The translations under genes were made by a program, and so were the position numbers. Of a stretch of DNA of 62,469 bases, positions 1 to 61,981 are shown one piece after another. Below the pieces are notes generated by a model. The model saw only the letters and a list, made by a program, of their open reading frames with translations. It did no database searches and had not been told where the DNA came from. Origin of the DNA: a virus (lineage: Duplodnaviria; Caudoviricetes); the IMG/VR virus record IMGVR_UViG_3300035101_000006, positions 1 to 62,469 of that record. One strand, 5' to 3'. Each line of letters starts with the position of its first letter. Within the stretch, counting starts at the first letter, position 1.

Positions 1-161
1 CGCTGGGCGTTAGGCGGGTGAGTCTGGCCCCCGGTGGGGGTCAGCGAAGCCGCCTAACGCGCCGCGAGTTAAGCGGACTTCGGGTCATCCACTTCCCCCC
101 ACCAATCATCGACAAGTTTATAAAATGACGCCAAGCATTCTGAACATAAATCCGCATCACA
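1..161. repeat. Terminal direct repeat (copy 1), indicating a circular or circularly permuted assembly
   Basis: 1-161 equals 62309-62469 except T35 vs A62343. Confidence 0.95.
9..58. repeat. Cassette spacer hairpin H5 (= 62317-62366)
   Basis: GTTAGGCGG-gtgagt-CTGGCCCCC-ggw-GGGGGTCAG-cgaag-CCGCCTAAC. Confidence 0.9.
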
Positions 162-272
162 AAATATTGGCGCTTTCTTAGTCCGTAAAGCTAATTTCAA
201 GTCAAGTAACGAGAGAAAGGGATATGTATTCTCAATTTCATTTTTGCATCTATCGCATACTGTTATCTTCAT
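69..272 (-). CDS. Cassette ORF, small Cys-rich protein (CDRC...CSEC)
   Basis: 67 aa, AT-rich, purine-rich SD; stop TAA lies inside the CCGCTTAA repeat. Confidence 0.75.
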   Translation of the reverse strand: MKITVCDRCKNEIENTYPFLSLLDLKLALRTKKAPIFCDADLCSECLASFYKLVDDWWGEVDDPKSA

Positions 273-320
273 CTTGCCCCTTTTCTAATTCCAGACTAGC
301 AGTTCCGCTTCAATGAGCAG

Positions 321-530
321 TTATGCGTCCGAAGCGGTTGAGTCGGCTTCGTGTTGGTTGTTGGCGTCGTCGCTGGCTGCACTACTGGCGGCGATATCGT
401 TTAGCACAGCCTGAACGCCATCAATTCCTAGCAGCTCGGTGAGGTTATAAATCAAGTGATAGCACGGTTGAGAGTAAAGCAATATATCTTTTTCTCTCGA
501 TTCTTTTACCATTTCTGCTTCTGTTTTCAT
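321..530 (-). CDS. Cassette ORF, hypothetical protein
   Basis: MKTEAEMVKES start after AGGAGG; stop lies inside GCATAAC. Confidence 0.7.
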   Translation of the reverse strand: MKTEAEMVKESREKDILLYSQPCYHLIYNLTELLGIDGVQAVLNDIAASSAASDDANNQHEADSTASDA

Positions 531-1764: not shown

Positions 1765-2594
1765 GCCGTTGCCCCCCCCTGCTCTAGCCATTGCCTGAGT
1801 CCATCGAATCCGGCCGGCTCACCGCCGACCACGGGAGAGCCGCGCGCCTTTCCCTTGTTCTTGGCACAGCCCACCAGATACGACACAACCCGAGCGCGGC
1901 TGGTACATCCCTCGCGCAGCGCCTTGTGGAGCAGGTCGTCAAACTCATCACCCAGCACCTGCGCGGCGGCCAGAAAATCGCGCTTTTGCTCTAATGTCTC
2001 GAACGTCTTGGGACCGCGTCGGCCTTTAGCCTTGGCGGTTGCCTGCAATCTCGCCTTGAGTATTCGCGCCTCCGGGGTGTCAAAATCTACTGTTTCGCTT
2101 GGAGGCGGGGGCGATCCGCCCCCCTCCGTAGGAGGTTCTTGGTGTTGTGGGGATTCGGGTACGGGTTCGGGTACGGGTACGGGGCTATCGTTAGTCACAC
2201 TGTTACTACCATCGTTACTAACACCGTTACGCATAGCCATTTCATCACCTTGACTTCGTTTCTTGCGCTCGCGCCATTCCGCCTGCCGCTTGGCATTGGC
2301 GGCCCTCTCTGCCTTTACCTGCTCGGCACTCGGGTTGTATTCGAGGTAATCGTGTATTTGATAGCCGCCGTCTGCGCGTTCCCATAGTCCGGCGGCAACC
2401 AAACGATCAGCGATGGCAAGCGGATCATCACAGACAAAGAGCAACCGTTTAACCTGGATCTCTGGCACAAATCCATCGGTGAGATAGTCGGCGCACCACG
2501 AAAGCGTCAGCAGGAAAAGCCCCATTGCCTCTGGTCCTGCCTCCAATACTTTCGGGTGGCTATGTAGTCTGTCATCAATCTTTGCCCAGGTCAC
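1761..2594 (-). CDS. Phage replication initiator / replisome organiser
   Basis: MTWAKIDDRLHSHPKV...DGFVP...GLW...YQIHDYLEYNPS N-terminus typical of phage initiators; PVPVPEPVP linker. Confidence 0.8.
   Translation of the reverse strand: MTWAKIDDRLHSHPKVLEAGPEAMGLFLLTLSWCADYLTDGFVPEIQVKRLLFVCDDPLAIADRLVAAGLWERADGGYQIHDYLEYNPSAEQVKAERAANAKRQAEWRERKKRSQGDEMAMRNGVSNDGSNSVTNDSPVPVPEPVPESPQHQEPPTEGGGSPPPPSETVDFDTPEARILKARLQATAKAKGRRGPKTFETLEQKRDFLAAAQVLGDEFDDLLHKALREGCTSRARVVSYLVGCAKNKGKARGSPVVGGEPAGFDGLRQWLEQGGATA
2190..2231. repeat. Putative iterons (origin) inside the initiator gene
   Basis: GTTA(C/G) at 2190, 2202, 2214 and 2226, an exact 12-bp period. Confidence 0.45.
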
Positions 2595-2604
2595 CGTTGC
2601 CCCC

Positions 2605-3495
2605 TCACCAATCCCTCACTACCCGGCCGCGCTCCGTCAGTACAACCGGCTCACTCCCGTACTCAATCAGGTTAAAGTATGCAAAATTGCCCCACGGACC
2701 ATCCGCGTACAGTTCTGTCGAGAACACGACCGCCCGCTGTATGCGCGTCTCATTCCCCACCCAGGCGAGAAACGCGCCCAGCTCGTCTGGATCTGCAATC
2801 CCTATCTCGCTAATAATTGCAAATTCTATGCCCGCCCCTTCTGCGTTCCATCCGTCCATCAGGGCAAGCATCCCCTCGGAATGCGCGATACACTCCGCCG
2901 CCGTGTTGTAGTAACAGTGCCAGTCCAGCACGTCAAACGGGAACGGGGCACCTGGATACATCGCCGCGTACTCGTCCACGAAATCGACAAGCCAGGGGGG
3001 ATGTATAGTAATCGCCGGCGATGCCCACTTGTATTCTGGAAACCGGTCAAGCAATAGGTGTTGATACACCGCCCAGGCCGCCGGGCTGATGTTCGCCTGT
3101 TCCGCAATTTCTGGCTCGTTCGCGGACAGCACGACCGCACCCGGCGCCGCCTCGATCTGCCGCCGTCCAGCCAGCACGTCATCGGCCAGCCAGGCGCAGC
3201 AAACGCACGGCATCTGCACGATATATCTGGGGCAGTCCTTGTTTGTGGCAACGTGCCACCCCCGCGCGTACTGCGCGCCCAGCGCCTCGACGATGCCGGC
3301 GCACCGCCCGGAGGTCAGTGCCACCCCTAGCTTATTGGGGTAATCGCTGGCGACCAGCGGTAGATATACCGTGTACGTCATTTCCTGCGGGGTTGCCTCT
3401 TGCGGTTCCCCCTGCCGCAGCACAAAGTAGACGGCGGTGATGGCGACTATGGCGCAGATGGCAAAGACCAGGGCAACGCGGCGTGCTGGCTTCAT
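2605..3495 (-). CDS. Membrane-anchored putative glycoside hydrolase (clan GH-A-like)
   Basis: N-terminal TM, YLPLV motif, NEPE acid/base motif, DWHCY and ISEIG motifs. Confidence 0.6.
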   Translation of the reverse strand: MKPARRVALVFAICAIVAITAVYFVLRQGEPQEATPQEMTYTVYLPLVASDYPNKLGVALTSGRCAGIVEALGAQYARGWHVATNKDCPRYIVQMPCVCCAWLADDVLAGRRQIEAAPGAVVLSANEPEIAEQANISPAAWAVYQHLLLDRFPEYKWASPAITIHPPWLVDFVDEYAAMYPGAPFPFDVLDWHCYYNTAAECIAHSEGMLALMDGWNAEGAGIEFAIISEIGIADPDELGAFLAWVGNETRIQRAVVFSTELYADGPWGNFAYFNLIEYGSEPVVLTERGRVVRDW

Positions 3496-3995
3496 TCCTT
3501 TGCTCCTAGCCCCGCTTGGGGCAGTTCTGGCCCGGGCATCTCGTCCCATTCGCGCCCATCCAGCAGGCGACCGGCGGCTTTCTTGCCGATGAATTGTCCT
3601 GTCTCAGAATCGCGTTCTGGTAGATGTAACTTATTGTGTTCCTCTTTGGTCATACGTTGTAGATTTTCCCATCGGTTATCGGTTTTGTCTCCATTGATAT
3701 GGTGTAGAACCTCACCTTGCAAGAGCGAGTCGCCAGCAGAGACCCAAACCAGCGTATGCTCATAGGCGTAACCATTGGAATCTGCCAGCGGATGTGATTT
3801 GCCGACGCGAATTTTCACATAGCCACCATCGGCTATCATTCTGCCGTCATTCCAGCGGTAATGCATTGAACTATTTACGTGGTTATTATGCAATCCGCGG
3901 CCATCTGGAACATCCATAATATCACACCCAAGTTCTTCGGCTCTCTTTTTGCGACGGTAATATGTCGTCCTGCTAAACGGGTAACCTTTATACAT
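3492..3995 (-). CDS. HNH endonuclease
   Basis: GYAYEHTLV...LHHINGDKTDNRWENLQ...EHNKLH. Confidence 0.9.
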   Translation of the reverse strand: MYKGYPFSRTTYYRRKKRAEELGCDIMDVPDGRGLHNNHVNSSMHYRWNDGRMIADGGYVKIRVGKSHPLADSNGYAYEHTLVWVSAGDSLLQGEVLHHINGDKTDNRWENLQRMTKEEHNKLHLPERDSETGQFIGKKAAGRLLDGREWDEMPGPELPQAGLGAKE

Positions 3996-4761
3996 TTGGA
4001 TACTCCCTTATCATCAGATCGTCTGGAATCGGTGCTTTCTTTGACATCTGCTTCATAAAAAACGGCACACCCGCCATCTGGCATTGGTCCCGTAGCGACC
4101 GCGCCCAGTCGGGATGCATCGGGCGCGCGTCGGGGCCAGATTCGCCGCCGCAGATGACCCAATCAAGTAGCGAATATCTGGCTGGGTCATCTCGTGCAGT
4201 TGCGCCTTGAGGATTGATCCACTCCGATAAATCTACCGGCCCCAGCATCGGCTCCACGCTCACAAACCGCACCGCCGCCGGTATCTGTAGCAGGGTGGGG
4301 ATGCGCTCGTTAGCCCGCTCCTGGTTCTCTGCTGTGACGCCAAGCCAGATGTTCGGGAATGGGTCTGGTTTTCCGTCACGATCAACAATGTACTCACTGA
4401 TCCACTCTTTCATTCTTCCGGGGCGTTTTGTGAGTACCTGAAATGTATGTTGTCTTGTGTTCTGGCGTCCCATCACGCGGAAAACCTCAAGAATGAATGA
4501 GTCTGGAATATCCTCGTGGAACAAATCTCCCATACTCACCACGAACACCCGCCGCGGCTTGCGCCAATGTAACGGCTCATCCAATCGGTCGGGGTGCAGC
4601 GTCACGTCGAAATTGTGTGACGCTTCTGGGTATCCGCACCGCCCGGCTAGGCGCTTGCTCATCCGTTCAGCGTAACAATGGGCGCACCCCTCGCTGATCT
4701 TTGTGCAGCCGGTGACAGGGTTCCACGTTTGGTCAGTCCATTCGATTTTAGTCTTGCCCAT
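3988..4761 (-). CDS. Phage Gp37/Gp68 (DUF5131) radical-SAM-like protein
   Basis: IEWTDQTWNPVTGCTKISEGCAHCYA, SMGDLFH, LTKRP, SVEPML, GGESG. Confidence 0.92.
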   Translation of the reverse strand: MGKTKIEWTDQTWNPVTGCTKISEGCAHCYAERMSKRLAGRCGYPEASHNFDVTLHPDRLDEPLHWRKPRRVFVVSMGDLFHEDIPDSFILEVFRVMGRQNTRQHTFQVLTKRPGRMKEWISEYIVDRDGKPDPFPNIWLGVTAENQERANERIPTLLQIPAAVRFVSVEPMLGPVDLSEWINPQGATARDDPARYSLLDWVICGGESGPDARPMHPDWARSLRDQCQMAGVPFFMKQMSKKAPIPDDLMIREYPNV

Positions 4762-5095
4762 CGTTTCCTCTTTCCTCCAGCCCTAGCGCCCGCTGCCGCT
4801 GGCAGTCGGGGGCGTGGCCAAAGTCACTGTGCCATCCGCACCAGGCGCACAAGTCATGGCCGCAATGTGTGGCGATTGGCACATATTCCACCGCCTCCAC
4901 CGCCGCCCGCAGCTCGTCCCGTTGGGCGCGCAAATCTTCCGCGCGTGACCATTCTGTGTGATAGCAGTCCTCATAAATTAACCGCTGCTTTTTATGTTCC
5001 TTTGCCGCCCGCTTCCAAGCGACCAGTTCCCGCCGCAGCCGCTCGTACTCGGCGCGCTTGGCGTCGGGTGACATTTTGGCCCAGTTGTCGGTCAT
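4748..5095 (-). CDS. Hypothetical protein
   Basis: 115 aa, coupled; C-terminal CAWC...HAPDC. Confidence 0.6.
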   Translation of the reverse strand: MTDNWAKMSPDAKRAEYERLRRELVAWKRAAKEHKKQRLIYEDCYHTEWSRAEDLRAQRDELRAAVEAVEYVPIATHCGHDLCAWCGWHSDFGHAPDCQRQRALGLEERGNDGQD

Positions 5096-7383
5096 TGGGC
5101 GGCCTCAGCTTGCTGCATAGCGGCCCAATCAAATAGCGTTTCACTTTTTCCCAAAGTCGCTGCACCCTTCATATTATTCACGGCTTCCTCGAAATATGAC
5201 CGTTTCAACTCAATGATGATGGCCTTGCGTCCGTGTTTGAGCGCAACGTACCCCTCGCTACCAATGCCACCAAATGGGGATAGTACGGTTTCACCGGGAT
5301 TTGAGTAGAGCTTGATGCATCGTTCAATAGTCTCAAGTTGCAATGGGCAGATGTGCTTTTCGTCATCGTGTGCGCGTCCGTGGTTGTAGCCGTGTTGAAG
5401 TACGTTTGTCTCGTTTATATCGGTCCACACGCCAGCCGCCCATTTTATCCATAGTTCATTGTCCATCTCGCCATTCTCAACCGGCGTGATAGGCACTTCA
5501 TTTTCCCCAGGCTTGCGGAACACAAGCACTTGGTCAATTAGAGCTGGACGGCTCCAAATGCTATCCTTCTTGAGTTGTACAAAAAGCAACCCCTTTGAGT
5601 GCGTGCGGATCGCTTGCGCTTGTGGATTTTTGCTGATGACGATTCGACCGTGGAACACCCAGCCTTCACGCTCGTATGCATCAATCACGCGGCCTGGAAA
5701 GTCCTTAATCCCAATATACCCATCGTTCTGCGCCAGCGCCGGAATGTCGCTGGTATGCACACAGGTTGCGCGACCTGGTTTTGTTACCCGCAGCACGTCA
5801 CGGATGATGTAGGCGTAATGTTCAAAGAACTCATCCCAATCGCGAGAGTTGCCCAAGTCCCGATTGCTGCTGGTGTAAGTGTAAAGGTCGGCAAATGGCG
5901 GGCTGTAGACTGACAAGTCAATCGAGTTGTCGCCAATCTCTGCGAGACGCTGGCTGGAATCGCCAAGCATTGCTGTCCATCCATCCTCTGATACTGTTTG
6001 CTCCTGGTATTCATCCTGCAGCGGTGCGACCATCCCAAGTTCCTCCTTCTCAAAGTTCTCTAGTTGTTTTATCATCTGTTCGCGCAGCCGCCTTGCCTGT
6101 GCGTCCTTACGCATAACGTTATGATAAACCGAATCCTCAACGTCGCTCATAACGATGTGAACATCAACAGGCGACGGTTGTAAATAGCGCCATTCCCTGC
6201 GCACACATTGATAGAACTGCTCCCAGGAATAGGACAGACCGAAAAACGCCATTTTGTGCGCGTTTTGCATATTCAACCCAAAGCCGCCGATGGCTGGCTT
6301 TGTGACCAAAATGCGAAATTTCCCGTCCTGGAAGTCCTCAAATGCCTGCGCCTTTTCGTCTGGTGAATCATCGCCCGTTACTTCTACGCAATCATCGAGC
6401 GCCGCCGTAACCGCTTCACTTTCCTCATTCAGCCCCACCCACACAATCCATTGCTCATTATCATCGCCAATGATCTCGGTGAGTTTATCGAGTCGCTGAG
6501 GAATTGTATCACGTCGGATCTCTGCGAGCTGTCTAATACCTTTGATATGGGTAAAGAAAAGTTGATCGTCTGGTTTGTAGTTTGAGCGAACAAAGTATTT
6601 GTGCTGTCGGAGGGGCGGTAACACAAAGCCGTCATCATCATAGCCCAGGTCGCTTGGCTTTGTCATCATAACCGCCCAACTTGCCAGCCATCGCAAGAAT
6701 GGTTGTTCGGCGTGATGCTTTAAACGCCACTCCTGCCCGGCTGCATTGCTGCCCTTTTTGCGATATGCCTTGTCGTCGATGTAGTAGGTGTGTTCCTTGT
6801 TGGCATTGATAAAGAACATCGCCAGCATTTCGGCGCGTGAGCAAATGCCCAGAAATTCGGCGTGATTGCCCAGCTCCGTGTGGTCGTTCGGCGATGGGGT
6901 CGCCGTACAACAAAGGCGATATGGAACAATCTGGCAAAGCTCCGTCAAACGCTTGCGTGTGCTGCCTGAAATTGATTTGAGGATGCTTGATTCATCCAAC
7001 ACAACCGCGCCGAATTCGTCAAAGTCGAAGTGGTCAATCATCTCGTAGTTTGTGATGGATATTAGGCCGTCAACCTCGCTTTGGTTACGCACATACTTAA
7101 CATCAATGTCAATCTTTTTGCCCTCTCGAACCGTCTGCCTTGCCACGGAAAGGGGAGCGATGATCAGAGTTTTCTCACCCATCAGCCGCGCCCATTCCAA
7201 CTGGCAGAATGTTTTACCGAGGCCGGTATCGAGAAACAAAGCACAACGCCCCTTGCGAACCGCCCAGGCCGTCACGTCACGCTGAAACGGGAATAGCATT
7301 TGATTGACTTCTGAATCGTCAACCTGCTTGCCATAAGCCGTTTGCCTGAATCGCTTTGTCTCTAAGAATTCCTGATAGTTCAT
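5092..7383 (-). CDS. SF2 (SNF2-like) helicase fused to an N4/N6 DNA methyltransferase
   Basis: DTGLGKT, LDESS, TATP, GLNMQ helicase motifs; YSPPF, KHICPLQL, LSPFGGIGS MTase motifs. Confidence 0.9.
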   Translation of the reverse strand: MNYQEFLETKRFRQTAYGKQVDDSEVNQMLFPFQRDVTAWAVRKGRCALFLDTGLGKTFCQLEWARLMGEKTLIIAPLSVARQTVREGKKIDIDVKYVRNQSEVDGLISITNYEMIDHFDFDEFGAVVLDESSILKSISGSTRKRLTELCQIVPYRLCCTATPSPNDHTELGNHAEFLGICSRAEMLAMFFINANKEHTYYIDDKAYRKKGSNAAGQEWRLKHHAEQPFLRWLASWAVMMTKPSDLGYDDDGFVLPPLRQHKYFVRSNYKPDDQLFFTHIKGIRQLAEIRRDTIPQRLDKLTEIIGDDNEQWIVWVGLNEESEAVTAALDDCVEVTGDDSPDEKAQAFEDFQDGKFRILVTKPAIGGFGLNMQNAHKMAFFGLSYSWEQFYQCVRREWRYLQPSPVDVHIVMSDVEDSVYHNVMRKDAQARRLREQMIKQLENFEKEELGMVAPLQDEYQEQTVSEDGWTAMLGDSSQRLAEIGDNSIDLSVYSPPFADLYTYTSSNRDLGNSRDWDEFFEHYAYIIRDVLRVTKPGRATCVHTSDIPALAQNDGYIGIKDFPGRVIDAYEREGWVFHGRIVISKNPQAQAIRTHSKGLLFVQLKKDSIWSRPALIDQVLVFRKPGENEVPITPVENGEMDNELWIKWAAGVWTDINETNVLQHGYNHGRAHDDEKHICPLQLETIERCIKLYSNPGETVLSPFGGIGSEGYVALKHGRKAIIIELKRSYFEEAVNNMKGAATLGKSETLFDWAAMQQAEAAQ

Positions 7384-16092: not shown

Positions 16093-16291
16093 CCCCCTCG
16101 CTCCTTTCTGCCCCTGCCCCGTCGCCGTCGCTGGGGGCGCGGCGCTGCGCTACCTTATCATTGACGGGATTAAGATAGCCTAGTTTGTCCAGCGCATTCA
16201 CAACGTTGTAAACCAGACGCTTTGATTTCCTGCGCTGCATATATTCCTCAACCTCGTTGGTTATCCTGAATAGGTCTACTGGATGCATCAC
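16085..16291 (-). CDS. Hypothetical protein
   Basis: 68 aa, coupled. Confidence 0.5.
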   Translation of the reverse strand: MMHPVDLFRITNEVEEYMQRRKSKRLVYNVVNALDKLGYLNPVNDKVAQRRAPSDGDGAGAERSEGDE

Positions 16292-17025
16292 TCCTCCTTG
16301 TCCCCGTCGATGGGGGCGGGTGGGGCGGTGCGCCCGCTTTGCACACTGTGTGTCAGCGGACCGCCCACATTTTCAAAGCGTTTGCCGCGACAAATCAAAC
16401 TGATAGCGGATTCAGTGTATCCGTAATCATTGGCGATACTCAATAGAGTTTCACCGCCTGCCCGACGAGTCCTAATTTCTATCACTTGCTCGGGGGAAAG
16501 TCGCCGTCCGGGTATAAGCGGGCCGCCCGCATTCTTATGACAATAGCCCCTGCAAATAGCTCTTACGTGGCTTTTTGACATTCCATATTCATCTGCCAGG
16601 GTTGCCATTGTAGCGCCCCTGTTTGCCTTGTGCCTAATTTGCCGTACCCGGCGGCGTGTAAGTGCCTCCTTATCTTCTAAGTTTCCCTGGTGAGTGTCGT
16701 ATCGGAGGTTGTCAAGGCGGTTATTCCTGGGGTCGCTGTCATTGTGGCACGCCTCCATACCATCTGGTGGAGGGCCGACAAAGGCCAATAATACGAGGTT
16801 GTGAACACGTCGAGGGTATCGTACTCCATCTTTGCATAGCATCACAAAAAGATACGTCCCGCCCCCCAAACACTGGGATAGTATCTTTTGTGGTTTGTCC
16901 ATAATTTCCCACTGAGGCCCGGCGTCGCTTATTCCAGTGCATTTTTTATAGCTCCGCACTGTCCCAAAATTGCTTATATCATACCCAGGGAAACCCGGTA
17001 TGGGACGGTACTTTTCTTGCATCAC
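16288..17025 (-). CDS. NUMOD4-HNH homing endonuclease with two C-terminal HTH repeats
   Basis: YRPIPGFPGYDISNFGTVRS, VHNLVLLAF..CHNDSDPRNNRLDNL; two A..YG.S/T...ICRG repeats. Confidence 0.9.
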   Translation of the reverse strand: MMQEKYRPIPGFPGYDISNFGTVRSYKKCTGISDAGPQWEIMDKPQKILSQCLGGGTYLFVMLCKDGVRYPRRVHNLVLLAFVGPPPDGMEACHNDSDPRNNRLDNLRYDTHQGNLEDKEALTRRRVRQIRHKANRGATMATLADEYGMSKSHVRAICRGYCHKNAGGPLIPGRRLSPEQVIEIRTRRAGGETLLSIANDYGYTESAISLICRGKRFENVGGPLTHSVQSGRTAPPAPIDGDKEE

Positions 17026-20429: not shown

Positions 20430-23400
20430 CTATTGCCCCGCATCGACAGGTAGCGCGCTACGTGTTCGGTCTTGACAGAGTGCAGGGCAAACGGATCAGA
20501 ACGCCAGTTCGGACACACGATCAAATACAGGTCGTTTGTGTCCCAGTCATCTTCCGCGCCACCCGTCAGCGTTCCGGTTATTTCGTAGTCATACCCTATA
20601 GACGTAATGACCGCGCTTGAGCCGTCCGTCAGATTGTAAACGATCATATCCGGTTTGACACCTGAACGCCAGAAATTCGCGTATCCGTCTTGCAATGTTG
20701 GGCTATTGTTTGCCCCCGTGTGATAGCCCTTGCACACGCCGGCAGCAGACAGGAAAAACAACTGCTGGTCTGCGTTGGCCTGCAATATCGCCGGACTCAA
20801 GCCCACGCGCTCATATATGCTGCGGATATATGCGCTTGCGTCTGCCGTGCGCACTGTGGCGCGGATGCTGCGCTTGGGGTACGTCACGCTGTCGGCGTCC
20901 AAAGAATACCCATTTGATACACCGCTGTCGGTTTCAAATGCCGCGTCTACAAAGTCGCCAACCCATTCATCGACCGGGACCAGGCACAGGTCATACATCG
21001 TAACTTGCAAGTTGTATGTTGCCTCGGACGCAATTTGCACGATGATATTAAACTCATTAGGCAACTCGTCTATGTTAAACGAGCCTGATACCGGCAAAGA
21101 AATTCTGCCAAAGTCGAGCAGTTGAAAGTCCTTGTAATGCTCTCCGTTTGCGTCTAGCCCGGTAAAGTGGCGGTACTCTGTCACCTTATAGACGCCACCA
21201 GATCCAGTCTGGAACAGCAGGCGCACGCGCACACCATCCTCGTCACCTGCAGGGGCGGCTGCGGGTTCTTCCAGTTGCGCGCGCATAAAGACGTGGAATG
21301 TGCCGTAATAGTCGCGCGCGATAGATGGCCCAAGCGTGACGGTAGCCACGTCTGCGTATATGTCCAGCGAGCCAGTGGGGGGCGTCGTGTGGCGGCAAGC
21401 AATCCCTGCAGGCGCGCGCGGGTCTGCAATGGTCGTCGTCCCTGTGCCATCCAGGACAATAACGCCTGTTGGGTTCTGGCTGTATGATGTGGCAACCACG
21501 CCGTCCTCTGCCAAGTTGATAAAGCTGGTAAATCCATCTCCGCGCGAAACGCCGCGCAGCCCGGCGATGATGCGGTTGTCCAGCAAGTCAAGCTCGTCTA
21601 CCGTTTCGTATCCATCCTCGTCTGAGCGGTTGTGCGTCTCAATCCGCAAGAGCGCGGGAACATCGCCGGCCACTTGTGCGTCGTCTATATCTACATCTGG
21701 CCAGGTGACGGTGTATACATCGCGGTGTTGTTGAATTGGAGACTGTAGCCACGTTCCAACGGCCGTTACCCTGGCGCGCACCCAAAGCGCAGTGACGCCA
21801 TTCACCGCATCCGTTGCCCAGTCATCGGGCGGAACCCAGGAAACAGAATTGACGCCCTGCCTATCGAACGGATCAAGTGCCATTGTGCCATCTTGCACAT
21901 TCAGCGTGTTCCACGCCGCGCCGCCCTGCGAATACTCCCACACTATCGTGATGGTTGCCCCGTTTAACTCTTGCAATATATCGAAAACCAACGAGCAGAA
22001 CGGGCCAAACTCGGACACGTTTGACGCAATGCCAAAGTATACAATGTCGCCAGCGACGAACGGCGATGGCAGCAAAAAGAATGGAAGTGTCGCCGGGAAA
22101 TGGCTTGTATACGCCGCGACGGTGCTGTTATAGACAAGTACATTTGATAGCTGGGCAATGTTTTTTTTATTCGCCACAAAGACTTCATCCAGGCAGGTTG
22201 CATCGCGCCCCACGTCCGTTGATTGTGACAAGATGTATATCTGTCCAAGCGCGCCGAGGTAGGCGAGTCCGTTGCCGGAATAGTTACCCACCATCCCCTC
22301 GCCGGGCGGCGCGGCTATCGTGTATATCGCCTTCCAATCAATTCCATCAGATGACTCGTAGATATTGCCGCCGCTCCCGCTCATAATATAGCTGCCGCTG
22401 GCAAGCTGCTGGATGTCGTTACCATACACGACGCCAAATACCGTATCGTCTGGTGTGACGCGCGCCCAGTTGATACCGTCAGATGTACGGTATAGTCGGG
22501 GACCGTCTAGCGTGCCGACAAGCTCGGATGCGAATAGATCATCTCCTATCTCTTGAAATACTGTAATGTAACTGAGGTTGTCGGTGATGAACACCTTTGT
22601 CCAGGTCGTTCCGTCCGTGCTGCGCCAGATGCTCCCGACATCAGACCCACTGCCACTCGACGTGTAAAGCGCATCCTCCCACACAAATAGTGCAATGCAC
22701 CCACCAAGCGGCGTTGAGAATACGCGCGTCCAGGTCGTGCCGCCGTCACTGCTGCGAAAAACTCCGCCGGTGACCGGACCACGAACAGCAGCATATAGAT
22801 AGCCGCCAAAATATGCAAGGCCGTTTTGATCGGCAAAGCTCGCCGCTCCGGCTCCGGTTATATCGTTGTTTCTGAGCGCCCAGTTGTTACCATCGTCTAC
22901 GCTGCGCCAGCATTCGGGCAGCGTGGTCCCGGTATCTGTGCCGATCAGATAAATGGTTGACCCGCCAACTTCAAGCATAGCCTGGCAATTCACATTTGGG
23001 GCAGGTGGAGCAGCGCACGCTGCCCACGGGGCGGTGCCGTCCAGCGAGCGCCATACATTGCTGCTTGCCTCGCACGCCACAAGAACGCCGCTGGTTGTTT
23101 CTATGATGTCGTGGACCTGCCCGACCGGGTTGGCGTCGTGGATTGCAAATAGTTCCTCGTATCTCCAATCTTCCTGCGTGCCACTCGCCTGCACGCAGTT
23201 GCACTCCACATCATCTTCGTCTGTGTAGTCACAATCACAATCCCACACCGCTTCAGTGATAGCTCCATCGTTGCTATTGCCCGAACGGTCATAGGTCGTC
23301 GCGCCCGCGCCTTCATAGATGACTTGCAGAACGACGCCAGCGTCAATGTTCGGCAGTTCACAGCGCGGCTCTGGCGTGAAGTCGCCGTCGGCGGGGTCGT

Positions 23401-25234
23401 AGGGGATGTCGTCGTGTACGCGCACCCATCCGATGTCGCCGTCGAATGTTCCAGATGCCCCGGCGTTATTGCCGATTATCAAATCATCGCCATTGTCAAC
23501 ACTATAGTTTCCGATGCTTACCTGCTGTGTGGGATAAGATGCAACCCAAACACCGTCTATCGCTAGATAAATTGTACGATTTGCTGGCAGGCCGCCGCCC
23601 GCTTCATCATACGTCATCAGGATGTGATGCCACTCACCGTCGGCGGTAAACTCATCCAAGCCGCTTGACGATATAGCATCCTGTGTCGCACAATCAACGT
23701 ATGACAATATTCCAACAGCAGAATCCACCAAGAGATGAAATCCACGCGTTGCTAGTGCATCACTGCCCTTGATAACAATACGGCCCTGATTGCCTTCACC
23801 ATACCCGTCTGCCCGTATCCACGCCTCGGCCGCCATCGGTCCGTTTCCTGCTATCGCGTTGTCTGGTAGGTCATCAATGCTGACCGCTGCTGCGACCGTT
23901 ACAAGGCTTGTCTCTCCATTGAACTCCAAATAGTTCGGCCAACAAGGATACACCGTGTTTTCATAGAGGCAATCGCAACCCCAAAGGACGGTAGTCAGCG
24001 TGCCATCGTTGTTGTGGCCTGAGTAGTCGTCGGTTTGCACTCCGCAGCCAGGCGAGTGTCTTAGGAGTAGTTGCGTCCCGGTGCTAGGATCTGGCGGAGT
24101 GCATCGCGGGTCGGGCGTGAAGTCGCCGCCAGCGGGGTCGTAGCGGATTGAGTCAGAGACGCGAACCCAGCCAATATCGCCATCAAATGCATGTCCTCCG
24201 ACAGAGTGATCACCAATCAATAAGTTACCTGCGGCATCTGTTGAATAGTTCCCAATGCTCACCTGTTGGGTCGGATAACTGGCAACCCAAACCCCATCAA
24301 TGGCAAGATAGATGGTCCTCGCTGCCGGAGTGTCAGCACCAGTCTCATCATAGCACATTAAGACGTGATGCCACAAACCATCGGCGGTAAACTCATCCAA
24401 GCCGCTATATGAAATTGCGTTTTGTGCTGCACAAAGGACATATCCAGCGAGTCCCTGTACACTGTCTAGTTGTAGAATCCATCCCCCCCCACGCTTCGAT
24501 ACAATATAGCCTTGACCTGTTTCTCCATATCCATTAGCCCGTATCCACCCATCTGCGGTCAATTGCCCTCGCCCTGCAACTGCATTATCTGGTATGTCGT
24601 CAAGGCTGGCATCACTCCCGCAATTGACGACAGAATCCGCGCCGTCAAATGTCAGATACGACGGATCGCACCCCGATTCTGTCCAGGTGATTGATTCGCT
24701 CTTTTCCTCCGGGCACGGCTGCCCAGGTGCAACGCTGCGCCAGAACGGTTCGCGCTCGATAACCAATCGCCAATCCTCAAACGCCGCCTGTCCCAGTTTG
24801 TTCCAGAAATAGTCTTGATTGCTGTATGGGTAGTTGTCAGCCTGCGCCCGGTAGTCCTCGATGAGTGAATAGCGCGCATTCGTCTCGCCCAGCCCCTGCG
24901 CCTTGATCCACACCGGCCCCGGAGTCCACGCTGTTGGAGAATATGAAGCCGCTTTCTCCAAGAGGCGGCGCAGTTCCTGCGTCTCACGCACAAGCATATC
25001 AGGCTCGAAGCTGCGCGCCTGGATTTCAAATGTCTCCATCGCATTTGCACGCTTGCGCACGCGCAACTTGCGCCCGTCTGCAAGCGGGCTGTCTGACCAG
25101 GTGCCGTCTCCCTTTATCTCAGACACGGCAGGCGTCCAGTCCGTGGCGAAGAACCCACTATGCGTATTTAGCAAATCAACCGTTGTGGTCCCATCTGTTA
25201 TTTGCAGTATCTGAAAGGCGGCACATCTCTGCAT
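20426..25234 (-). CDS. Large distal tail / receptor-binding protein with two LamG domains and a BNR beta-propeller
   Basis: Follows the tape measure; duplicated LamG; repeated RSxDGxTW Asp-boxes. Confidence 0.8.
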   Translation of the reverse strand: MQRCAAFQILQITDGTTTVDLLNTHSGFFATDWTPAVSEIKGDGTWSDSPLADGRKLRVRKRANAMETFEIQARSFEPDMLVRETQELRRLLEKAASYSPTAWTPGPVWIKAQGLGETNARYSLIEDYRAQADNYPYSNQDYFWNKLGQAAFEDWRLVIEREPFWRSVAPGQPCPEEKSESITWTESGCDPSYLTFDGADSVVNCGSDASLDDIPDNAVAGRGQLTADGWIRANGYGETGQGYIVSKRGGGWILQLDSVQGLAGYVLCAAQNAISYSGLDEFTADGLWHHVLMCYDETGADTPAARTIYLAIDGVWVASYPTQQVSIGNYSTDAAGNLLIGDHSVGGHAFDGDIGWVRVSDSIRYDPAGGDFTPDPRCTPPDPSTGTQLLLRHSPGCGVQTDDYSGHNNDGTLTTVLWGCDCLYENTVYPCWPNYLEFNGETSLVTVAAAVSIDDLPDNAIAGNGPMAAEAWIRADGYGEGNQGRIVIKGSDALATRGFHLLVDSAVGILSYVDCATQDAISSSGLDEFTADGEWHHILMTYDEAGGGLPANRTIYLAIDGVWVASYPTQQVSIGNYSVDNGDDLIIGNNAGASGTFDGDIGWVRVHDDIPYDPADGDFTPEPRCELPNIDAGVVLQVIYEGAGATTYDRSGNSNDGAITEAVWDCDCDYTDEDDVECNCVQASGTQEDWRYEELFAIHDANPVGQVHDIIETTSGVLVACEASSNVWRSLDGTAPWAACAAPPAPNVNCQAMLEVGGSTIYLIGTDTGTTLPECWRSVDDGNNWALRNNDITGAGAASFADQNGLAYFGGYLYAAVRGPVTGGVFRSSDGGTTWTRVFSTPLGGCIALFVWEDALYTSSGSGSDVGSIWRSTDGTTWTKVFITDNLSYITVFQEIGDDLFASELVGTLDGPRLYRTSDGINWARVTPDDTVFGVVYGNDIQQLASGSYIMSGSGGNIYESSDGIDWKAIYTIAAPPGEGMVGNYSGNGLAYLGALGQIYILSQSTDVGRDATCLDEVFVANKKNIAQLSNVLVYNSTVAAYTSHFPATLPFFLLPSPFVAGDIVYFGIASNVSEFGPFCSLVFDILQELNGATITIVWEYSQGGAAWNTLNVQDGTMALDPFDRQGVNSVSWVPPDDWATDAVNGVTALWVRARVTAVGTWLQSPIQQHRDVYTVTWPDVDIDDAQVAGDVPALLRIETHNRSDEDGYETVDELDLLDNRIIAGLRGVSRGDGFTSFINLAEDGVVATSYSQNPTGVIVLDGTGTTTIADPRAPAGIACRHTTPPTGSLDIYADVATVTLGPSIARDYYGTFHVFMRAQLEEPAAAPAGDEDGVRVRLLFQTGSGGVYKVTEYRHFTGLDANGEHYKDFQLLDFGRISLPVSGSFNIDELPNEFNIIVQIASEATYNLQVTMYDLCLVPVDEWVGDFVDAAFETDSGVSNGYSLDADSVTYPKRSIRATVRTADASAYIRSIYERVGLSPAILQANADQQLFFLSAAGVCKGYHTGANNSPTLQDGYANFWRSGVKPDMIVYNLTDGSSAVITSIGYDYEITGTLTGGAEDDWDTNDLYLIVCPNWRSDPFALHSVKTEHVARYLSMRGNR

Positions 25235-56878: not shown

Positions 56879-57133
56879 TCAGTTTCGGCGGCTTGCCACG
56901 TCCCGCACCTTGCCCAGCGCCACCTTGAGCAGGTAACTAACCCCCTGCTGTGTCTTGCCGATGGCGCGGGCGATGGCCAATTCCTCGATCCCGCACCCGC
57001 AGTACATCACGAACGCTATTAACTCGTTGTCCGTCATTGAACGCATCGCCAGGATCACAACATCCTCGGCAAACTGTGCATCCTCTATGTCTGCCTCTAT
57101 GCGCCGCTCTGCGTAGTTGTGCCTTTGCGCCAT
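56879..57133 (-). CDS. Sigma region-4-like HTH regulator (putative late activator)
   Basis: MTDNELIAF...IARAIGKTQQGVSYLLKVALGKVR. Confidence 0.7.
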   Translation of the reverse strand: MAQRHNYAERRIEADIEDAQFAEDVVILAMRSMTDNELIAFVMYCGCGIEELAIARAIGKTQQGVSYLLKVALGKVRDVASRRN

Positions 57134-57960
57134 CAGCCCCCCGCAACTTCATCAAACCGTGGGCGCGGCTCGAATAAATCCATCTGCGCCCCTGCTTGGC
57201 GCAGAATCTGGCCAATGCTCCAACGCGGTCGCCAGGTGTGGTTAATCTCAACCTCCAAATCTGCGGCAATCTGTGCAACCTCTGGATGCAGGCGGCAGAA
57301 GTTGAATACCTCTTGACGCTTGCCCATAATGCAGCACCAGCAACCGCAGCGGGTAGCATAGTTATACATCGGGTTTGGTAGGATGCCGTGCGCCCGCAGA
57401 TAGTCCCACACCTGGCGCTCTGTCCATTCGAGGACAGGGCGAAAGGACGGCGGGGGTGGAGATAATAACGGACTGTTTAGTTTTTTATTGCCGCCATTTG
57501 TCCAGGGATCATATTTGCTGCGCCGTTTCGATTCCTCGCGCCTACTGCCCTCAAGTTGTACGGGATTATCAAACTCGTTAGCATATAGTCTTAGTGGCCA
57601 CTGCTTGAGATACATAGTACAAAACCGATAGCGCGACCCCGGCCACATTCCACGCGTTCTCACAAGATCGAAAATACCGCCTCTACAATTCGCCAACGCG
57701 TCAATTCTATCCTGCCCATTTCGCTTTGCCGGTAACGCCCGATCTCCTGCCTGTATCCGGTCTATCTCGATTCCAAGTTCCCGCTCAAGATAGCTCAGAT
57801 AGTCGTATGTTTCGGGCCATTCCGCGCCAGTGTCGCAGAATGCAAAGCGCAGCTTGTCGCGTGGCAGGGTATCCAGCGCCCACAGCGCAGTGGCCGTGCT
57901 GTCCTTGCCACCGCTTACGGCGACGATATAGGTATCAAAGTCTGATAGGTGCATCGCCAT
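57133..57960 (-). CDS. Phosphoadenosine phosphosulfate reductase family protein
   Basis: SGGKDS, DTGAE, RFCT..LK, GSRREES..R, NPMY..RCGCWCC. Confidence 0.9.
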   Translation of the reverse strand: MAMHLSDFDTYIVAVSGGKDSTATALWALDTLPRDKLRFAFCDTGAEWPETYDYLSYLERELGIEIDRIQAGDRALPAKRNGQDRIDALANCRGGIFDLVRTRGMWPGSRYRFCTMYLKQWPLRLYANEFDNPVQLEGSRREESKRRSKYDPWTNGGNKKLNSPLLSPPPPSFRPVLEWTERQVWDYLRAHGILPNPMYNYATRCGCWCCIMGKRQEVFNFCRLHPEVAQIAADLEVEINHTWRPRWSIGQILRQAGAQMDLFEPRPRFDEVAGG

Positions 57961-58319: not shown

Positions 58320-59411
58320 CTAATTCGCGGTGTGGGGTGGGGTAGCAGGCGGCGTGGTGACTGTTTTTGGCTCCGGTGCGACCAAGTTCAGAAAATCTGC
58401 ACCCTCTGCCGTAATGTCAACCCCCTGCTTGTGGGCCTTCGGGTTTGTCCACTTCGCAAACCCCTTCCCAAACATCCACTCGCATACGTCCTGATACTCT
58501 TTCTGTGACAGAATCCCTGCCCCGCTGCTGCAGCACGCCGTTTCAGAGAATTTCTTGGTGGTCAATATGTACCGCGCCAGTTGAATCATCGTGTCATCGT
58601 CCAGCGGGCAATCATCGTGACTATGCTCAGAGATAAGTCGCCCGTTTGCGTCTCTGGTGGTTATCGTCAGGTGAATTTCGCGCGGCGCCGCCTGCGCGGC
58701 CGATGCCCGCTTGTTCCGCACCGCCCACCACCACGGCGGCTCATTCCCGGCCAAGAGCGAACCGACGGCACCCCAAATGTTCTGCTCCTGGAATACCGAC
58801 TTTTGCGCCAGTTTTTGCGAGAACGCAAGTTCGATATGCACCCAAAACGACGCAGACGCAATGGCGAGAATCGCCGCAACCAATGGGCCAAATAGTCGCC
58901 ACGCATCGGCGGACCATTCCAGCCACCACGGAAGCACAATTTCCGGCGCAACCAGCACGGCGACACGCCATAGACACCAGACCAGGCCGCCGAGCAGGGC
59001 AGACGCCCCCACGCCAATTATCAGCGTCAAAAGAATGACGCCGAGAATCAGCGCCGGACCCGTGCCACGCTCCACCAGCTCGCCTATCCATAGCTCGATT
59101 GATTCCTGTCTGAGCCAGCGGCGGACGGCCAGCACCCACCAGATGAACGTCGCCACAGATCCAACAAACCACACGACGAACAGCGCGTCTTTACCAATGG
59201 CGAACACAGCCAGCAAAAACGATGTGACCATTGACGCAAGGGCGATGGACGCCCAGCGCGCTTGCAACACTGGCACGGTTACATCGTTTTCGCGCCCGGC
59301 CTCGCGGCGCTCGTCTATCTCTGCTGGCGTCGACCCCTTGCGTTCTATGTCAAGTTCGCCGCCTAGCTGCCCTATTCTGCTTTTCCTTGCTCTTGCATCC
59401 ATTGTCAGCAT
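58320..59411 (-). CDS. Multi-TM membrane protein with a C-terminal winged-helix-like domain
   Basis: Four to five TM segments; KGFAKW...DITAEGADFL. Confidence 0.6.
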   Translation of the reverse strand: MLTMDARARKSRIGQLGGELDIERKGSTPAEIDERREAGRENDVTVPVLQARWASIALASMVTSFLLAVFAIGKDALFVVWFVGSVATFIWWVLAVRRWLRQESIELWIGELVERGTGPALILGVILLTLIIGVGASALLGGLVWCLWRVAVLVAPEIVLPWWLEWSADAWRLFGPLVAAILAIASASFWVHIELAFSQKLAQKSVFQEQNIWGAVGSLLAGNEPPWWWAVRNKRASAAQAAPREIHLTITTRDANGRLISEHSHDDCPLDDDTMIQLARYILTTKKFSETACCSSGAGILSQKEYQDVCEWMFGKGFAKWTNPKAHKQGVDITAEGADFLNLVAPEPKTVTTPPATPPHTAN

Positions 59412-59549
59412 CCTATTCACCCCAGCCCCCCGGCGGCTGCGGCGGCTGCCCTGCGTGGCTGCGGCGCTGGCGGCGGGCTTCAATCATTGCGGTTTTTATG
59501 TCCATCTAATTGCCTTTTGTGGGAGCGAGCAGCCCGAACGCGCCGCGAG

Positions 59550-59804
59550 TTAAGCGGAGGGTGGGTTTTTCGTTTCATCTTCTATTGGCTCAAACGCTTG
59601 TTCAAAATCATAATCTCGCCAAATATGTTTCTCTCCAAGTGGGCCAGTTACTATCCAATCACCACGGCCCACGATTAGCCTGCCTTGATCTGTCTCAACA
59701 ACGCCATATACCCCGCCCGCCCTCTCAGTAACATCTTTAGTAGATTTCCCTGGATACCACTGTTCTGCCTCTACTATCACTGGATTTTTTCTAAACTTTG
59801 GCAT
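59550..59804 (-). CDS. Cassette ORF, conserved phage protein (MPKFRK.PV..EA.QW type)
   Basis: FRKNPVIVEAEQW...GDWIVTG..GE......FEQAFE; AAGGAG SD. Confidence 0.8.
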   Translation of the reverse strand: MPKFRKNPVIVEAEQWYPGKSTKDVTERAGGVYGVVETDQGRLIVGRGDWIVTGPLGEKHIWRDYDFEQAFEPIEDETKNPPSA

Positions 59805-59859
59805 TTGCACGCTCTCCTTGTGAACTAGTCCCGTCCAACCCTTCCGCTTCAATGAGCAG

Positions 59860-60066
59860 TTATGCGTCCGAAGCGGTTGAGTCGGCTTCGTGCTGGTTGT
59901 TGGCGTCGTCGTCTGATTCAGCGGGGCGGCGGATAATGTGGTCGAATGCCCCGGCTTTGATAAGTTCTATAACACATTTTAGGCAAAGACCGTTTGGCAC
60001 AGTGCCTTTTTCACCACATCGCCTGCACTTCTTATCAAGATTAATGTCGATTGTTGCTGTTGGCAT
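59860..60066 (-). CDS. Cassette ORF, small zinc-finger protein
   Basis: CRRC...CLKC; stop lies inside GCATAAC. Confidence 0.7.
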   Translation of the reverse strand: MPTATIDINLDKKCRRCGEKGTVPNGLCLKCVIELIKAGAFDHIIRRPAESDDDANNQHEADSTASDA

Positions 60067-60132
60067 AATTAGCCGCCTTTCTGCTCACTGGTCAAGTAGA
60101 GCGAAACCGTCCTGCTCATTTAACTCGCGCCC

Positions 60133-60181
60133 ATTCGACGGGTGAGCCTCCCTCCGAAGGATGGGAGCGAAGCCGTCGAAC
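60133..60181. repeat. Cassette spacer hairpin H1
   Basis: aTTCGACGG-gtgagc-CTCCC..GGGAG-cgaag-CCGTCGAAC. Confidence 0.9.
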
Positions 60182-60190
60182 GTGGGCGAG

Positions 60191-60556
60191 TTAAGCCGCC
60201 CTATGGGTTTGCTTTCGCTCGAATCTATGGCACGCATCATCTGCATCCGTTTCTATTTTCCATAAATAACAATGCCCAAATCTATGATTGAGTTTGTTCA
60301 TTTTCCAATTGACGCAATCGCGGCACCGTAGCTTCAGCCCAAGACTAATAGGGTCGGCTTCAATGAGTTGTTCGGGGCGCGAGCGTGTAGCGTCGGTTCC
60401 CGATGGCTCTGGACTGCCTTCTGGCGTGGTTAAGGCGTTCTGCAAATCCGAGTTCATATCTGCCAGTGTAAGCACTAGGTGTGCAAGATCACTTTTCGAT
60501 TTGTTCATCAGAGAGTTATAGGTTAAATCTGTCGTTACTACGATGGTTGTTCCCAT
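60191..60556 (-). CDS. Cassette ORF, hypothetical with C-terminal Cys cluster
   Basis: CRDCVNW...GHC...C; stop lies in GGCTTAA. Confidence 0.7.
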   Translation of the reverse strand: MGTTIVVTTDLTYNSLMNKSKSDLAHLVLTLADMNSDLQNALTTPEGSPEPSGTDATRSRPEQLIEADPISLGLKLRCRDCVNWKMNKLNHRFGHCYLWKIETDADDACHRFERKQTHRAA

Positions 60557-60643
60557 TATCTTCACCTTTCCCTTTCAAGCCGTTCTCTGCTTCAGACTTA
60601 GAGCGTCCCCGATGACAACTCATTGAAGTGTTAACTCGCCCAC

Positions 60644-60690
60644 GTTCGGGTCAAGCGAGCTGGCCCAGAGGGTCAGCGAGCGACCCGAAC
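60644..60690. repeat. Cassette spacer hairpin H2
   Basis: GTTCGGGTC-aagcgag-CTGGCCC-aga-GGGTCAG-cgagc-GACCCGAAC. Confidence 0.9.
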
Positions 60691-60716
60691 GGCGCGGAGA
60701 TAAGCGGACTTGCGGG

Positions 60717-61088
60717 TTAGGCGCGCTCGTGATACTGACACGTTTCTCCAATCTTTTTTATGCCGTCATATATGCCGCATTGACCATGGTTGTTAGTGTG
60801 CGGCACAACAAGCCAGTATTCACAATCTGGCCCGCATCTCAAGATAGCATCATTAGCAAGTTCCGCTTCATTGACTGGTTCGCCCTCTGAGCGGATTTGC
60901 TGCTTCGTGTCGCTGGGGGCGTCATCTGGGGCTGCATCGTGGGCGGCGTATTTTGCCTTAATGGTCGTGTCCCACAAATTATACCCAAGCCAATCCCCAA
61001 CCCGCGAGGCCGCTTTTCTCAGCCTCTCAAGCGTCATCATATCGAGATAAATAAACCCAACTGCCATAACTTCAAATTTCTTGTCCAT
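60717..61088 (-). CDS. Cassette ORF, hypothetical with C-terminal Cys cluster
   Basis: MDKKFEV...CGPDCEYW...C...C. Confidence 0.7.
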   Translation of the reverse strand: MDKKFEVMAVGFIYLDMMTLERLRKAASRVGDWLGYNLWDTTIKAKYAAHDAAPDDAPSDTKQQIRSEGEPVNEAELANDAILRCGPDCEYWLVVPHTNNHGQCGIYDGIKKIGETCQYHERA

Positions 61089-61153
61089 TCTAGCCGCCTT
61101 TCTGTTCTCAAATCCTGATAAGTTCAGAGGGTCAGTCAATGTATCTCCGCGCC

Positions 61154-61205
61154 GTTCGCCCTCTGAGCCTCCCTTCGTACCCGAACGGGAGCGAAGAGGG
61201 CGAAC
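61154..61205. repeat. Cassette spacer hairpin H3
   Basis: GTTCGCCCTCT-gagc-CTCCC..GGGAG-cga-AGAGGGCGAAC. Confidence 0.9.
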
Positions 61206-61330
61206 GGGCCGGAGATATGCTGCGCGTGTGTAGGTGCGTTTGCTACCACCGTGCCCACCATCTCAAGTGCCATCCGTCCCATACCTCCATACTAGCGCAG
61301 CATCATTGACTGGTTATCCGCCCGAACGGG

Positions 61331-61585
61331 TCAGGCGGCTTCATCTTCTGCGCCAGAATCATCTTCACACGAGAGATCAGACAAGGCGACTTTTAGAGAT
61401 TGTAATGCTTCTATAGCATAGATGATTCCAGCAGCCCTGCCGTGCCAATGAACCGCAGATTTACCAGAACCCCATTGTTTCGAAAGTTCAGATTGTTTAA
61501 TGCTCTCGGCTGCTTCATCAAAAAGATGATCTAATCCCATAGTGCCTTTGTCTCTTAATGCCCTTAGTTTGTCCGTGAGTGTCAT
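61331..61585 (-). CDS. Cassette ORF, hypothetical
   Basis: AGGAGGT SD, 84 aa. Confidence 0.7.
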   Translation of the reverse strand: MTLTDKLRALRDKGTMGLDHLFDEAAESIKQSELSKQWGSGKSAVHWHGRAAGIIYAIEALQSLKVALSDLSCEDDSGAEDEAA

Positions 61586-61663
61586 TTTAATACCTCCTAG
61601 CCTTGCTCTTATTGAGCGGAGTCACGTTGAGAGAGAAGGATAACCTCAATGTATCTCCGGCCC

Positions 61664-61710
61664 GTTATCCGCGCCGAACCTCCCCCAGAGGGGGAGTGAG
61701 GGCGGATAAC
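61664..61710. repeat. Cassette spacer hairpin H4
   Basis: GTTATCCGC-gccgaac-CTCCCCC-aga-GGGGGAG-tgagg-GCGGATAAC. Confidence 0.9.
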
Positions 61711-61735
61711 GCCCAGCGAGTTAAGCGGACGCGGG

Positions 61736-61927: not shown

Positions 61928-61981
61928 TTTCTGACTCCTAGACTAGCGTTCCGCTTCAATGAGCAGTTAGGCGGCGAGCGC

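Follow-up and report, generated by a model that had tools for sequence, protein, structure and literature searches.

The attC sites of integrons are hairpins of 57-141 bp with a variable loop of 3-100 nt, in the source sections drawn on here. The sections of Nivina 2016 (PMC5027507) that were used add that IntI1 requires 6 bp between the extrahelical bases, that each arm has an unpaired central spacer of 5-6 nt, that the usual extrahelical bases on the bottom strand are G and T, and that a longer loop means less recombination where the attC must extrude from duplex DNA. Arrays of such sites that lack an integron integrase, called CALINs, are present in phages, and according to the portion of Qi 2023 (PMC9892861) drawn on here IntI1 recombines the attC sites that they contain; as described there, that survey used an IntegronFinder search together with HattCI annotation. 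A phage CALIN is a known kind of element. What is new in the array described here is the gene inside the site loop, the longer spacer, and the self-complementary mini copy of the site. Judging from its sequence, the stretch at 52-326 is probably (with a rough probability of 0.6) one of six integron-type attC sites in an integrase-less phage array, a CALIN, whose cassettes would still be able to recombine. The attC reading is supported by arm homology, by covariation in the L stem and by the G|TT junction rule.

The window is the whole of record IMGVR_UViG_3300035101_000006 (62,469 nt; IMG/VR class 'linear'; CheckV completeness estimate 82%), and it is a complete or nearly complete tailed-phage genome. 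It carries a portal, a capsid protein, a tape-measure protein, a weak terminase-domain match and HNH endonucleases, and its long ORFs are almost all on the minus strand. Positions 1-161 repeat 62309-62469 but for one mismatch (34/62342), which falls at a hairpin apex, and a contig from a public run bridges 62469 into sequence matching the window start. Because of this end repeat and the bridging contig, the phage genome is taken to be circular or terminally redundant, and the 'linear' label in IMG/VR probably reflects the single end-repeat mismatch. Since the window ends overlap, the repeats at both ends form one array of about 3.5 kb, which runs from 59533 to 62308 and then from 1 to 645.

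Assembled (Logan) contigs from one public wetland run, probably the source sample, were compared with the window; they leave stretches such as 59724-59829 without cover, which carries no information. Single contigs of that run have loose ends at 62371 and 61671, a weak hint of related cassettes in other contexts. The array stretch 60001-62000 has a GC content of 51%, against 53-62% in the remaining 2-kb windows, and a tRNA scan of the window found none. Within a 1602-aa Laminin_G_3 tail-fibre-like gene, 23361-24443 holds two internal direct repeats (741 nt apart, 72-78% identity), which look like a duplicated domain. Two HNH_3 homing-type endonuclease genes, one with a NUMOD4 motif, lie on the minus strand at 3492-3995 and 16288-17025. 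A helicase-N6_N4 DNA methylase fusion (5092-7383), a PAPS-reductase-domain protein (57133-57960) and a DUF5131 protein (3988-4761), all minus-strand, suggest a DNA-modification module.

All six attC-like sites are on the minus strand and share one order: an R'' box (xxxxAAC), 6 nt, an L'' arm with a bulged G and, 6 bp further in, a bulged A, a loop of 60-290 nt, the L' arm, 9-10 nt, and G|TTxxxx. The first site, U1 (52-326; 275 nt), was found both by direct reading and by the structural detector described below. Its R'' box is at 326-320, its 6-nt spacer at 319-314, L'' at 313-301, the loop at 300-80, L' at 79-69, a 10-nt spacer at 68-59 and R' (G|TTAGGC) at 58-52, so that the minus strand from 326 to 52 reads GCATAAC-TGCTCA-TTGAAGCGGAACT-(gene 272..69)-AGTCCGCTTAA-CTCGCGGCGC-GTTAGGC. 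The others are U2 (61704-61972; 269 nt), which encloses gene Y2; U3 (61199-61319; 121 nt), the only one of the six within the known attC size range; U4 (60684-60884; 201 nt); U5 (60175-60376; 202 nt), whose arms are closest to the aadA1 attC; and U6 (59533-59865; 333 nt), which encloses gene Y6. The AAC and GTT triplets are invariant in all six, and the full RYYY/RRRY consensus is carried solely by GCCTAAC/GTTAGGC, one of five distinct R'' boxes.

A preliminary description of this DNA had reported the layout of 326..52 and two repeat copies at 59533-59865 and 61704-61972; direct reading of 1-600 and of 59300-62469 bore out both. Its three copies were real but did not make up the set, since it had missed 61319..61199, 60884..60684 and 60376..60175, which belong to the same array of six. 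It had also called the sites nested, and this proved wrong: no site contains another, and each precedes a copy, inverted and collapsed, of the site that belongs to the next unit. The 10-nt spacer that it saw before GTT is present in three sites, while the other three have 9 nt, and the ACTAG motif that it placed in every copy is carried by four of the six (U1, U2, U3 and U6).

For a direct comparison with a classical site, the aadA1 attC was read from plasmid R100. It is GTCTAAC-AATTCG-TTCAAGCCGAC...CGGCTTAA-CTCAAGC-GTTAGAT, and U5 is CCCGAAC-AACTCA-TTGAAGCCGAC...CGGCTTAA-CTCGCCCAC-GTTCGAC. The two agree at 10 of 11 positions in L'', where the bulged base differs, and at 11 of 11 in L' plus 3 nt. 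In all six sites both arms can be aligned with this reference, which bears out the parallel to classical attC drawn earlier, and when three sites from one related array (L178, below) and one from another (L118) were added to the alignment, AAC and GTT were still invariant. The outer boxes (AAC/GTT), the bulges of L''/L' and the G|TT boundary are all as in attC. The bulges in the array sites are 6 bp apart, which fits the extrahelical-base rule; on the bottom strand the first is C, where G is usual, and the second T. The spacer on the R''-L'' arm is 6 nt and that on the L'-R' arm 9-10 nt, against about 5-7 nt on each arm of a classical site.

The sites depart from attC most in their size. Only U3 is inside 57-141 bp; the others measure 201, 202, 269, 275 and 333 nt. 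Sites of this gene-filled kind have two to three times the length of any attC on record. The very large loop, which had been pointed out as a deviation from attC, was confirmed at 60-290 nt against the known 3-100 nt. IntegronFinder has a size ceiling of 200 nt. Three of the sites are clearly above it and two are at 201-202 nt, so most of the array would probably be missed by that program.

A structural detector was used to search for such sites. It requires AAC, 4-7 nt, 2 bp, one bulge and at least 6 bp, allows an optional second bulge with further pairs, and ends with 5-11 nt and then GTT, over a total span of 45-420 nt. In the window it returned these six minus-strand sites and no others there, each with a stem of 11-14 pairs; on the plus strand, at a threshold of 10 pairs, it found none. 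Twenty Markov shuffles of the window, searched on both strands, gave 7 matches in total (mean 0.35). In 206 unrelated loci (2.34 Mb) there were 56 detector rows in 45 loci, scattered save for one cluster in L178; two matches in L177 were dropped as chance because both are antisense within coding DNA. As a positive control, 50 kb of R100 yielded the aadA1 attC as the sole match.

The pairing of the L arms is specific to each unit. The material for comparison was six copies and two related arrays. Every L'' in the window has its own L' as best partner, with 11-14 paired positions and zero mismatches, whereas pairing with the L' of other units reaches a mean of 6.8 pairs and a maximum of 10. The stems vary as +CT/AG, +CGC/GCG, +GGGT/ACCC, +CTTGC/GCAAG and AAGCCG+CCCTAT, and U3 has a distinct stem, ATGCTGCGC/GCGCAGCAT, whose sequence is wholly unlike that of the other sites while the pairing is kept. 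The bulged G is present in all six sites and the second bulged A, 6 bp further in, in five, always on the L'' arm. The co-variation of the arms and the two unpaired bases, both noticed in the preliminary description, are thereby upheld; compensatory change has maintained the L stem together with its two bulges.

This pairing bears on one alternative, namely that the array was built with short loops which genes entered later, that the sites are now dead, and that their pairing is inherited and not selected. The loops are far past the known working range and the window has no integrase, as such relics would have it. Against this, mismatch-free pairing over 11-14 positions in all six sites, in stems that differ in sequence, counts against dead sites, and a separate mechanism would have to account for five independent, precise insertions of genes into loops. 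We consider relic sites an unlikely account.

The preliminary description had proposed folding both single strands. In minimum free energy (MFE) folds of isolated sites, the long-range L stem forms on at least one strand in five of the six, and in U1 it forms on neither. The hairpins between units are very stable (z -2.5 to -7.6), and folding is strong on both strands. When U3, U4 and U5 were closed in silico as circles, the best fold on both strands was a three-way junction composed of the mini copy paired with R''/L'', a perfect hairpin of spacer and R box, and the L stem with gene Y inside it. In these modelled excised circles the local hairpins outcompete canonical R''/R' pairing.

Each unit of the array consists of TTxxxx, a hairpin loop, an inverted collapsed copy of the unit's own site, a gene X, R'', 6 nt, L'', a gene Y, L', 9-10 nt and a final G. 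The start of a unit reads G|TTxxxx, a loop of 33-38 nt, xxxxAAC, the inverted own spacer, a few L-box bases and the unit's own 6-nt spacer. This 'mini' is the unit's own site minus L stem and loop, inverted. In integrons, the R' box that closes a site belongs to the next cassette. Here, in five of six units, R'' is complementary at 7 of 7 positions to the TTxxxx box at the start of that unit. Its complementarity to the R' box at the end of the site is only 4-6 of 7; the match with the opening box reaches 11 nt in U3 and U4. In all five testable units the mini spacer is identical to the unit's own distal spacer, about 435 nt away, and is unlike the adjacent arm. This places the junction between the spacer and TTxxxx, which is the integron crossover point, and neighbouring units change exactly at G|TT.

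The first array boundary and hairpin 1 occupy 575-645, where G|TTATGC (645-639, minus strand) follows phage DNA. The G|TT there has no L' or spacer before it, and the boundary resembles a secondary-site or attI-like junction. Next come the loop, GCATAAC and an inverted collapsed core of U1 (plus strand TGCTCA-TTG-CTCGCGGCGC-GTTATGC, 575-600). Hairpin 2, between U1 and U2, lies at 1-58 and again at 62309-62366, with the R' box, a loop and an inverted R box. The remaining minis are on the plus strand. That of U2 (62298-62323) reads TGCTCA-TTG-CTCGCTGGGC-GTTAGGC. That of U3 (61644-61670) has a spacer 100% complementary over 15 nt to the distal spacer of U3, 434 nt away; in that of U4 (61133-61160) the match is 17 nt, 100% complementary and 439 nt away; and that of U5 (60617-60650) has two matches, of 18 nt and 14 nt, each 100% complementary. 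The mini at the start of U6 (60113-60139) has no match to the distal spacer of U6. At its other end the array breaks off in one more cassette, of which only the initial 14 nt are present (59519-59532, minus strand, CTGCTCGCTCCCAC). This truncated start follows the last G|TTCGGG, carries the conserved loop-start motif and is followed by phage DNA.

That loop-start motif, YTCRCTSMCC (e.g. CTTCGCTCCC), opens all seven loops, the truncated one included (on the minus strand, e.g. 51-40, 61703-61692 and 59532-59519). The loops are asymmetric, with GTGAG on one side and CGAAG on the other, which suggests a strand-specific role. Two other readings of the repeats were tried and dropped. One assigned an 'internal R'' box' (xxxTAAC-CC), at the loop-gene 3' ends, to a smaller canonical site, and the pairing was inconsistent. 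The other was the XerCD site dif/pdif, which has two 11-bp arms and a 6-bp centre; by sequence reading, the inverted R boxes in hairpins 1-6 are 33-38 nt apart, and the gap between the longer inverted arms is 29-32 nt.

The sharp unit boundaries also bear on whether the units could be mosaic phage modules, swapped by homologous recombination at repeats or by a recombinase of unknown type acting on palindromic hairpins. In the PeSL cassettes of T4-type phages, where small ORFs are flanked by an early promoter and a stem-loop, modules are exchanged by homologous recombination at conserved repeats. The units here do have conserved stretches of 25-80 nt in common, and an 83-nt segment shared by U1 and U6 (in X1/X6) at 92% identity resembles homologous exchange. 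Such exchange would scatter the switch points, and they instead lie exactly between spacer and TTxxxx in five of five testable units, with only GTT shared between neighbours, which weakens this explanation. The array is also unlike PeSL cassettes in that it has 2 sigma-70-like sites against 2.2 expected, neither of them in the repeats, in a scan that covered sigma-70 and not phage-specific promoters; the stem-loops have no sigma-70 promoter, and no recombinase family was found in the window. We regard mosaic modules as very improbable.

U6 is the exception to the rules. Its R'' is unlike the box that opens it, so that it breaks both the R''-box rule and the spacer rule, and together with the 83-nt stretch in common with U1 this makes it probably a chimera produced by homologous recombination. 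A chimeric unit, and a truncated cassette start that could be decay at the array end, would both suit relic sites, although the perfect complementarity between R'' and opening box in five of six units would not.

No close relative of the array was found in the scanned collections, and two related arrays were. Neither the array nor the tail genes had a blastn match among 50,697 phage records. In pattern scans of IMG/VR, a 14-base motif had at least 116 single, chance-like matches, a 19-mer had none, and a 16-base L'-spacer motif had six loci, all unrelated; a neighbouring 387-aa protein had no IMG/VR relative. The pattern scan of genome contigs gave one chance match (L117), and that of metagenomes gave three loci, L118, L119 and L120, of which only L118 is relevant: in L119 the motif is within coding sequence, and L120 is the same contig as L117. 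A blastn-short search of the junctions against the loci collected by then returned only pattern-selected matches.

The first related array is in L178 (IMGVR_UViG_3300026127_000002), a phage contig of 43.7 kb that is 96% complete and lacks a match to PF00589. Its array, at 1880-4400, has sites of 59, 108 and 132 nt which belong to the same sequence family and have canonical 6/7-nt spacers, two 105-nt perfect palindromes bounded by R boxes, and short GTTxxxx-loop-xxxxAAC hairpins. Its cargo is two N6_N4 methylases and small Cys-rich genes; one ORF starts inside a site and exits through R', with its ribosome-binding site and start codon inside the site. With respect to the genes, the bulged arm in L178 is the other one, so that the polarity of the sites and the direction of the genes are not coupled. 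Relatives of the L178 methylase led only to L208, which is this array in a second copy. The other related array is on L118 (Ga0180436_10283088), a 1.2-kb metagenome contig with 10-nt-spacer sites at 931-1206, an inverted mini copy that matches its own spacer and an adjoining PIN_3/DUF6364 toxin-antitoxin-like cassette. By its sequence L118 is probably part of a bacterial chromosomal integron, and it may point to the host lineage. The self-complementary mini copy was found in three independent arrays.

Coding sequence lies inside five of the six site loops, and the loop genes are 60-100 aa long and zinc-ribbon-like. Y1 (69-272, minus strand), in the loop of U1, is 67 aa and Cys-rich, and a homologue search found none besides Y1 itself. 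The loop genes are real: Y2 (61736-61927, minus), in the loop of U2, matches Zn_ribbon_Top1 (E 1.7e-11) and Y6 (59550-59852, minus), in the loop of U6, matches phrog_419 (E 3e-17). By inspection Y1, Y4, Y5 and X6 are Cys-rich. X1 (321-581, minus; 86 aa) ends with a TAA stop within R'' (GCATAAC) and shares its C-terminal 16 aa, without a difference, with X6, whose stop codon is also in R''. The stops of Y1 (TAA) and Y6 are in L'. In two units the reading frame does not stop at the site: the U4 ORF (60717-61139, minus) and the U5 ORF (60191-60565, minus) are each in frame through R''-L''. A single ORF spans R''-L'' in both, so the site arms double as coding sequence there. These two ORFs may, from their sequence, be natural proteins with an attC arm as linker. 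In both, an N-terminal part is joined to a common Cys-rich C-terminal domain (29% identity over 66 aa, E 0.047).

Arms that are partly translated or bear stop codons raise a further alternative, that the stems work at the RNA level: they would bracket cistrons, the big hairpins would be sites of mRNA processing or stabilisation, and the likeness to attC would be mere ancestry. RNase III sites lie between the early genes of T7. A single transcribed strand carries all genes and sites of the array, folding of the hairpins is strong on either strand, and L178 has a ribosome-binding site and start codon inside a site, all of which an RNA role could explain. It would leave unexplained why the hairpin arms mismatch their neighbours and match the far end of their own unit exactly, a pattern that fits a circular-cassette history better than selection acting on a transcript, which it does not fit, and why site polarity in L178 is inverted relative to the genes. 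Moreover, the array has no excess of sigma-70 promoters or intrinsic terminators, and Rfam gave no matches over the gathering score on the array. RNA-level elements are improbable on this evidence, and both they and homologous recombination have lower odds than relic sites.

We return to attC sites that would still work. At E<=1 the window has no match to PF00589 (tyrosine recombinases), TIGR02249 (integron integrase), PF00239 (serine recombinases) or PF01797 (Y1 transposases), so any recombination must use a host integrase. Weighing against working sites are this assumed enzyme, the length of five of the sites and of their loops, the 9-10-nt spacer, the C at the first bulge, the loosely kept boxes outside AAC and GTT, the stable local hairpins, the U1 fold and the site polarity in L178. 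In the proposed mechanism, phage replication would supply single-stranded DNA for folding. The plus strand (the attC 'bottom' strand) would fold with R' paired to R'' and L' to L'', with gene Y looped out, and host IntI would bind it. A cut at AA|C would then lead to whole units being inserted, excised or reordered, and the phage would gain an exchangeable set of small, mostly zinc-ribbon-like accessory genes. In the excised circle, the inverted mini and the R' half of the site would together form a perfect palindrome, which could help extrusion or lock the site.

Taken jointly, these steps describe a working attC with a gene in its loop, by which a host integrase moves two-gene units in and out of a lytic phage, and a mini copy that is an adaptation to it; this full combination is possible but doubtful. 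If it were true, the mini would make the R' half a local palindrome that extrudes from duplex DNA, or a lock, and so compensate for the over-long loop; the size limit in integron searches would hide a class of cassettes; and site arms would also serve as protein linkers. Gene-in-loop sites would extend the definition of attC beyond hairpins of 57-141 bp, and present surveys would then be seen to count too few cassettes, above all in phages. The array would be a clear case of integron cassettes in an integrase-less phage, bearing on gene exchange between phages and bacterial integrons, and the mini copy may bear on the folding or stability of cassettes.

Among known systems, the aadA1 attC of In2 on R100 is like the array sites in its box order, its AAC/GTT, an L''/L' nearly identical to that of U5, two bulges 6 bp apart on the same arm, G|TT joining and stops in R''. 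It differs in its L'-R' spacer, which is 7 nt against 9-10 nt here, and known attC sites differ in having loops of 3-100 nt where the array has 60-290 nt holding a gene. A classical integron differs more broadly: the array is not a complete integron, having no intI with adjacent attI and Pc, and each unit adds an inverted collapsed site copy. Vibrio cholerae repeats (VCR) and long chromosomal attC sites have similarly long, branched loops and high within-array similarity, but they are at most about 141 bp, with no protein gene described inside in the source sections used. In the literature covered, of which the supplementary tables of PMC9892861 were not part, no natural attC with a gene-sized loop and no inverted collapsed copy are described.

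Other elements place genes or coding sequence in attC sites by different routes. Group IIC-attC introns and IS1111-attC elements interrupt attC sites, and so also have a gene between attC halves. The inserts here are instead zinc-ribbon-like proteins of 60-100 aa, the loop genes, of 63-100 aa, have no reverse-transcriptase or transposase match, and the Rfam search of the array found no group II intron RNA. The phage CALINs of PMC9892861, as far as the portion drawn on describes them, share with the array two or more attC-type sites, the lack of an integron integrase and a cargo of small genes, and their cargo includes DNA methylases as does that of L178. As it holds six sites within 3.5 kb, in a 62-kb record that has no integrase, the array falls in this class, its sites being counted as attC despite their size. 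Finally, in synthetic attC sites placed within protein-coding sequence (Nivina 2020, PMC7439510), the arms double as coding sequence and peptide linkers, as in U4 and U5. Those are designed sites, with loops of 3-21 nt, whereas here the sites are natural and the loop itself is the gene, so that the array, if it works as proposed, would be a natural counterpart to engineered attC embedded in coding sequence.
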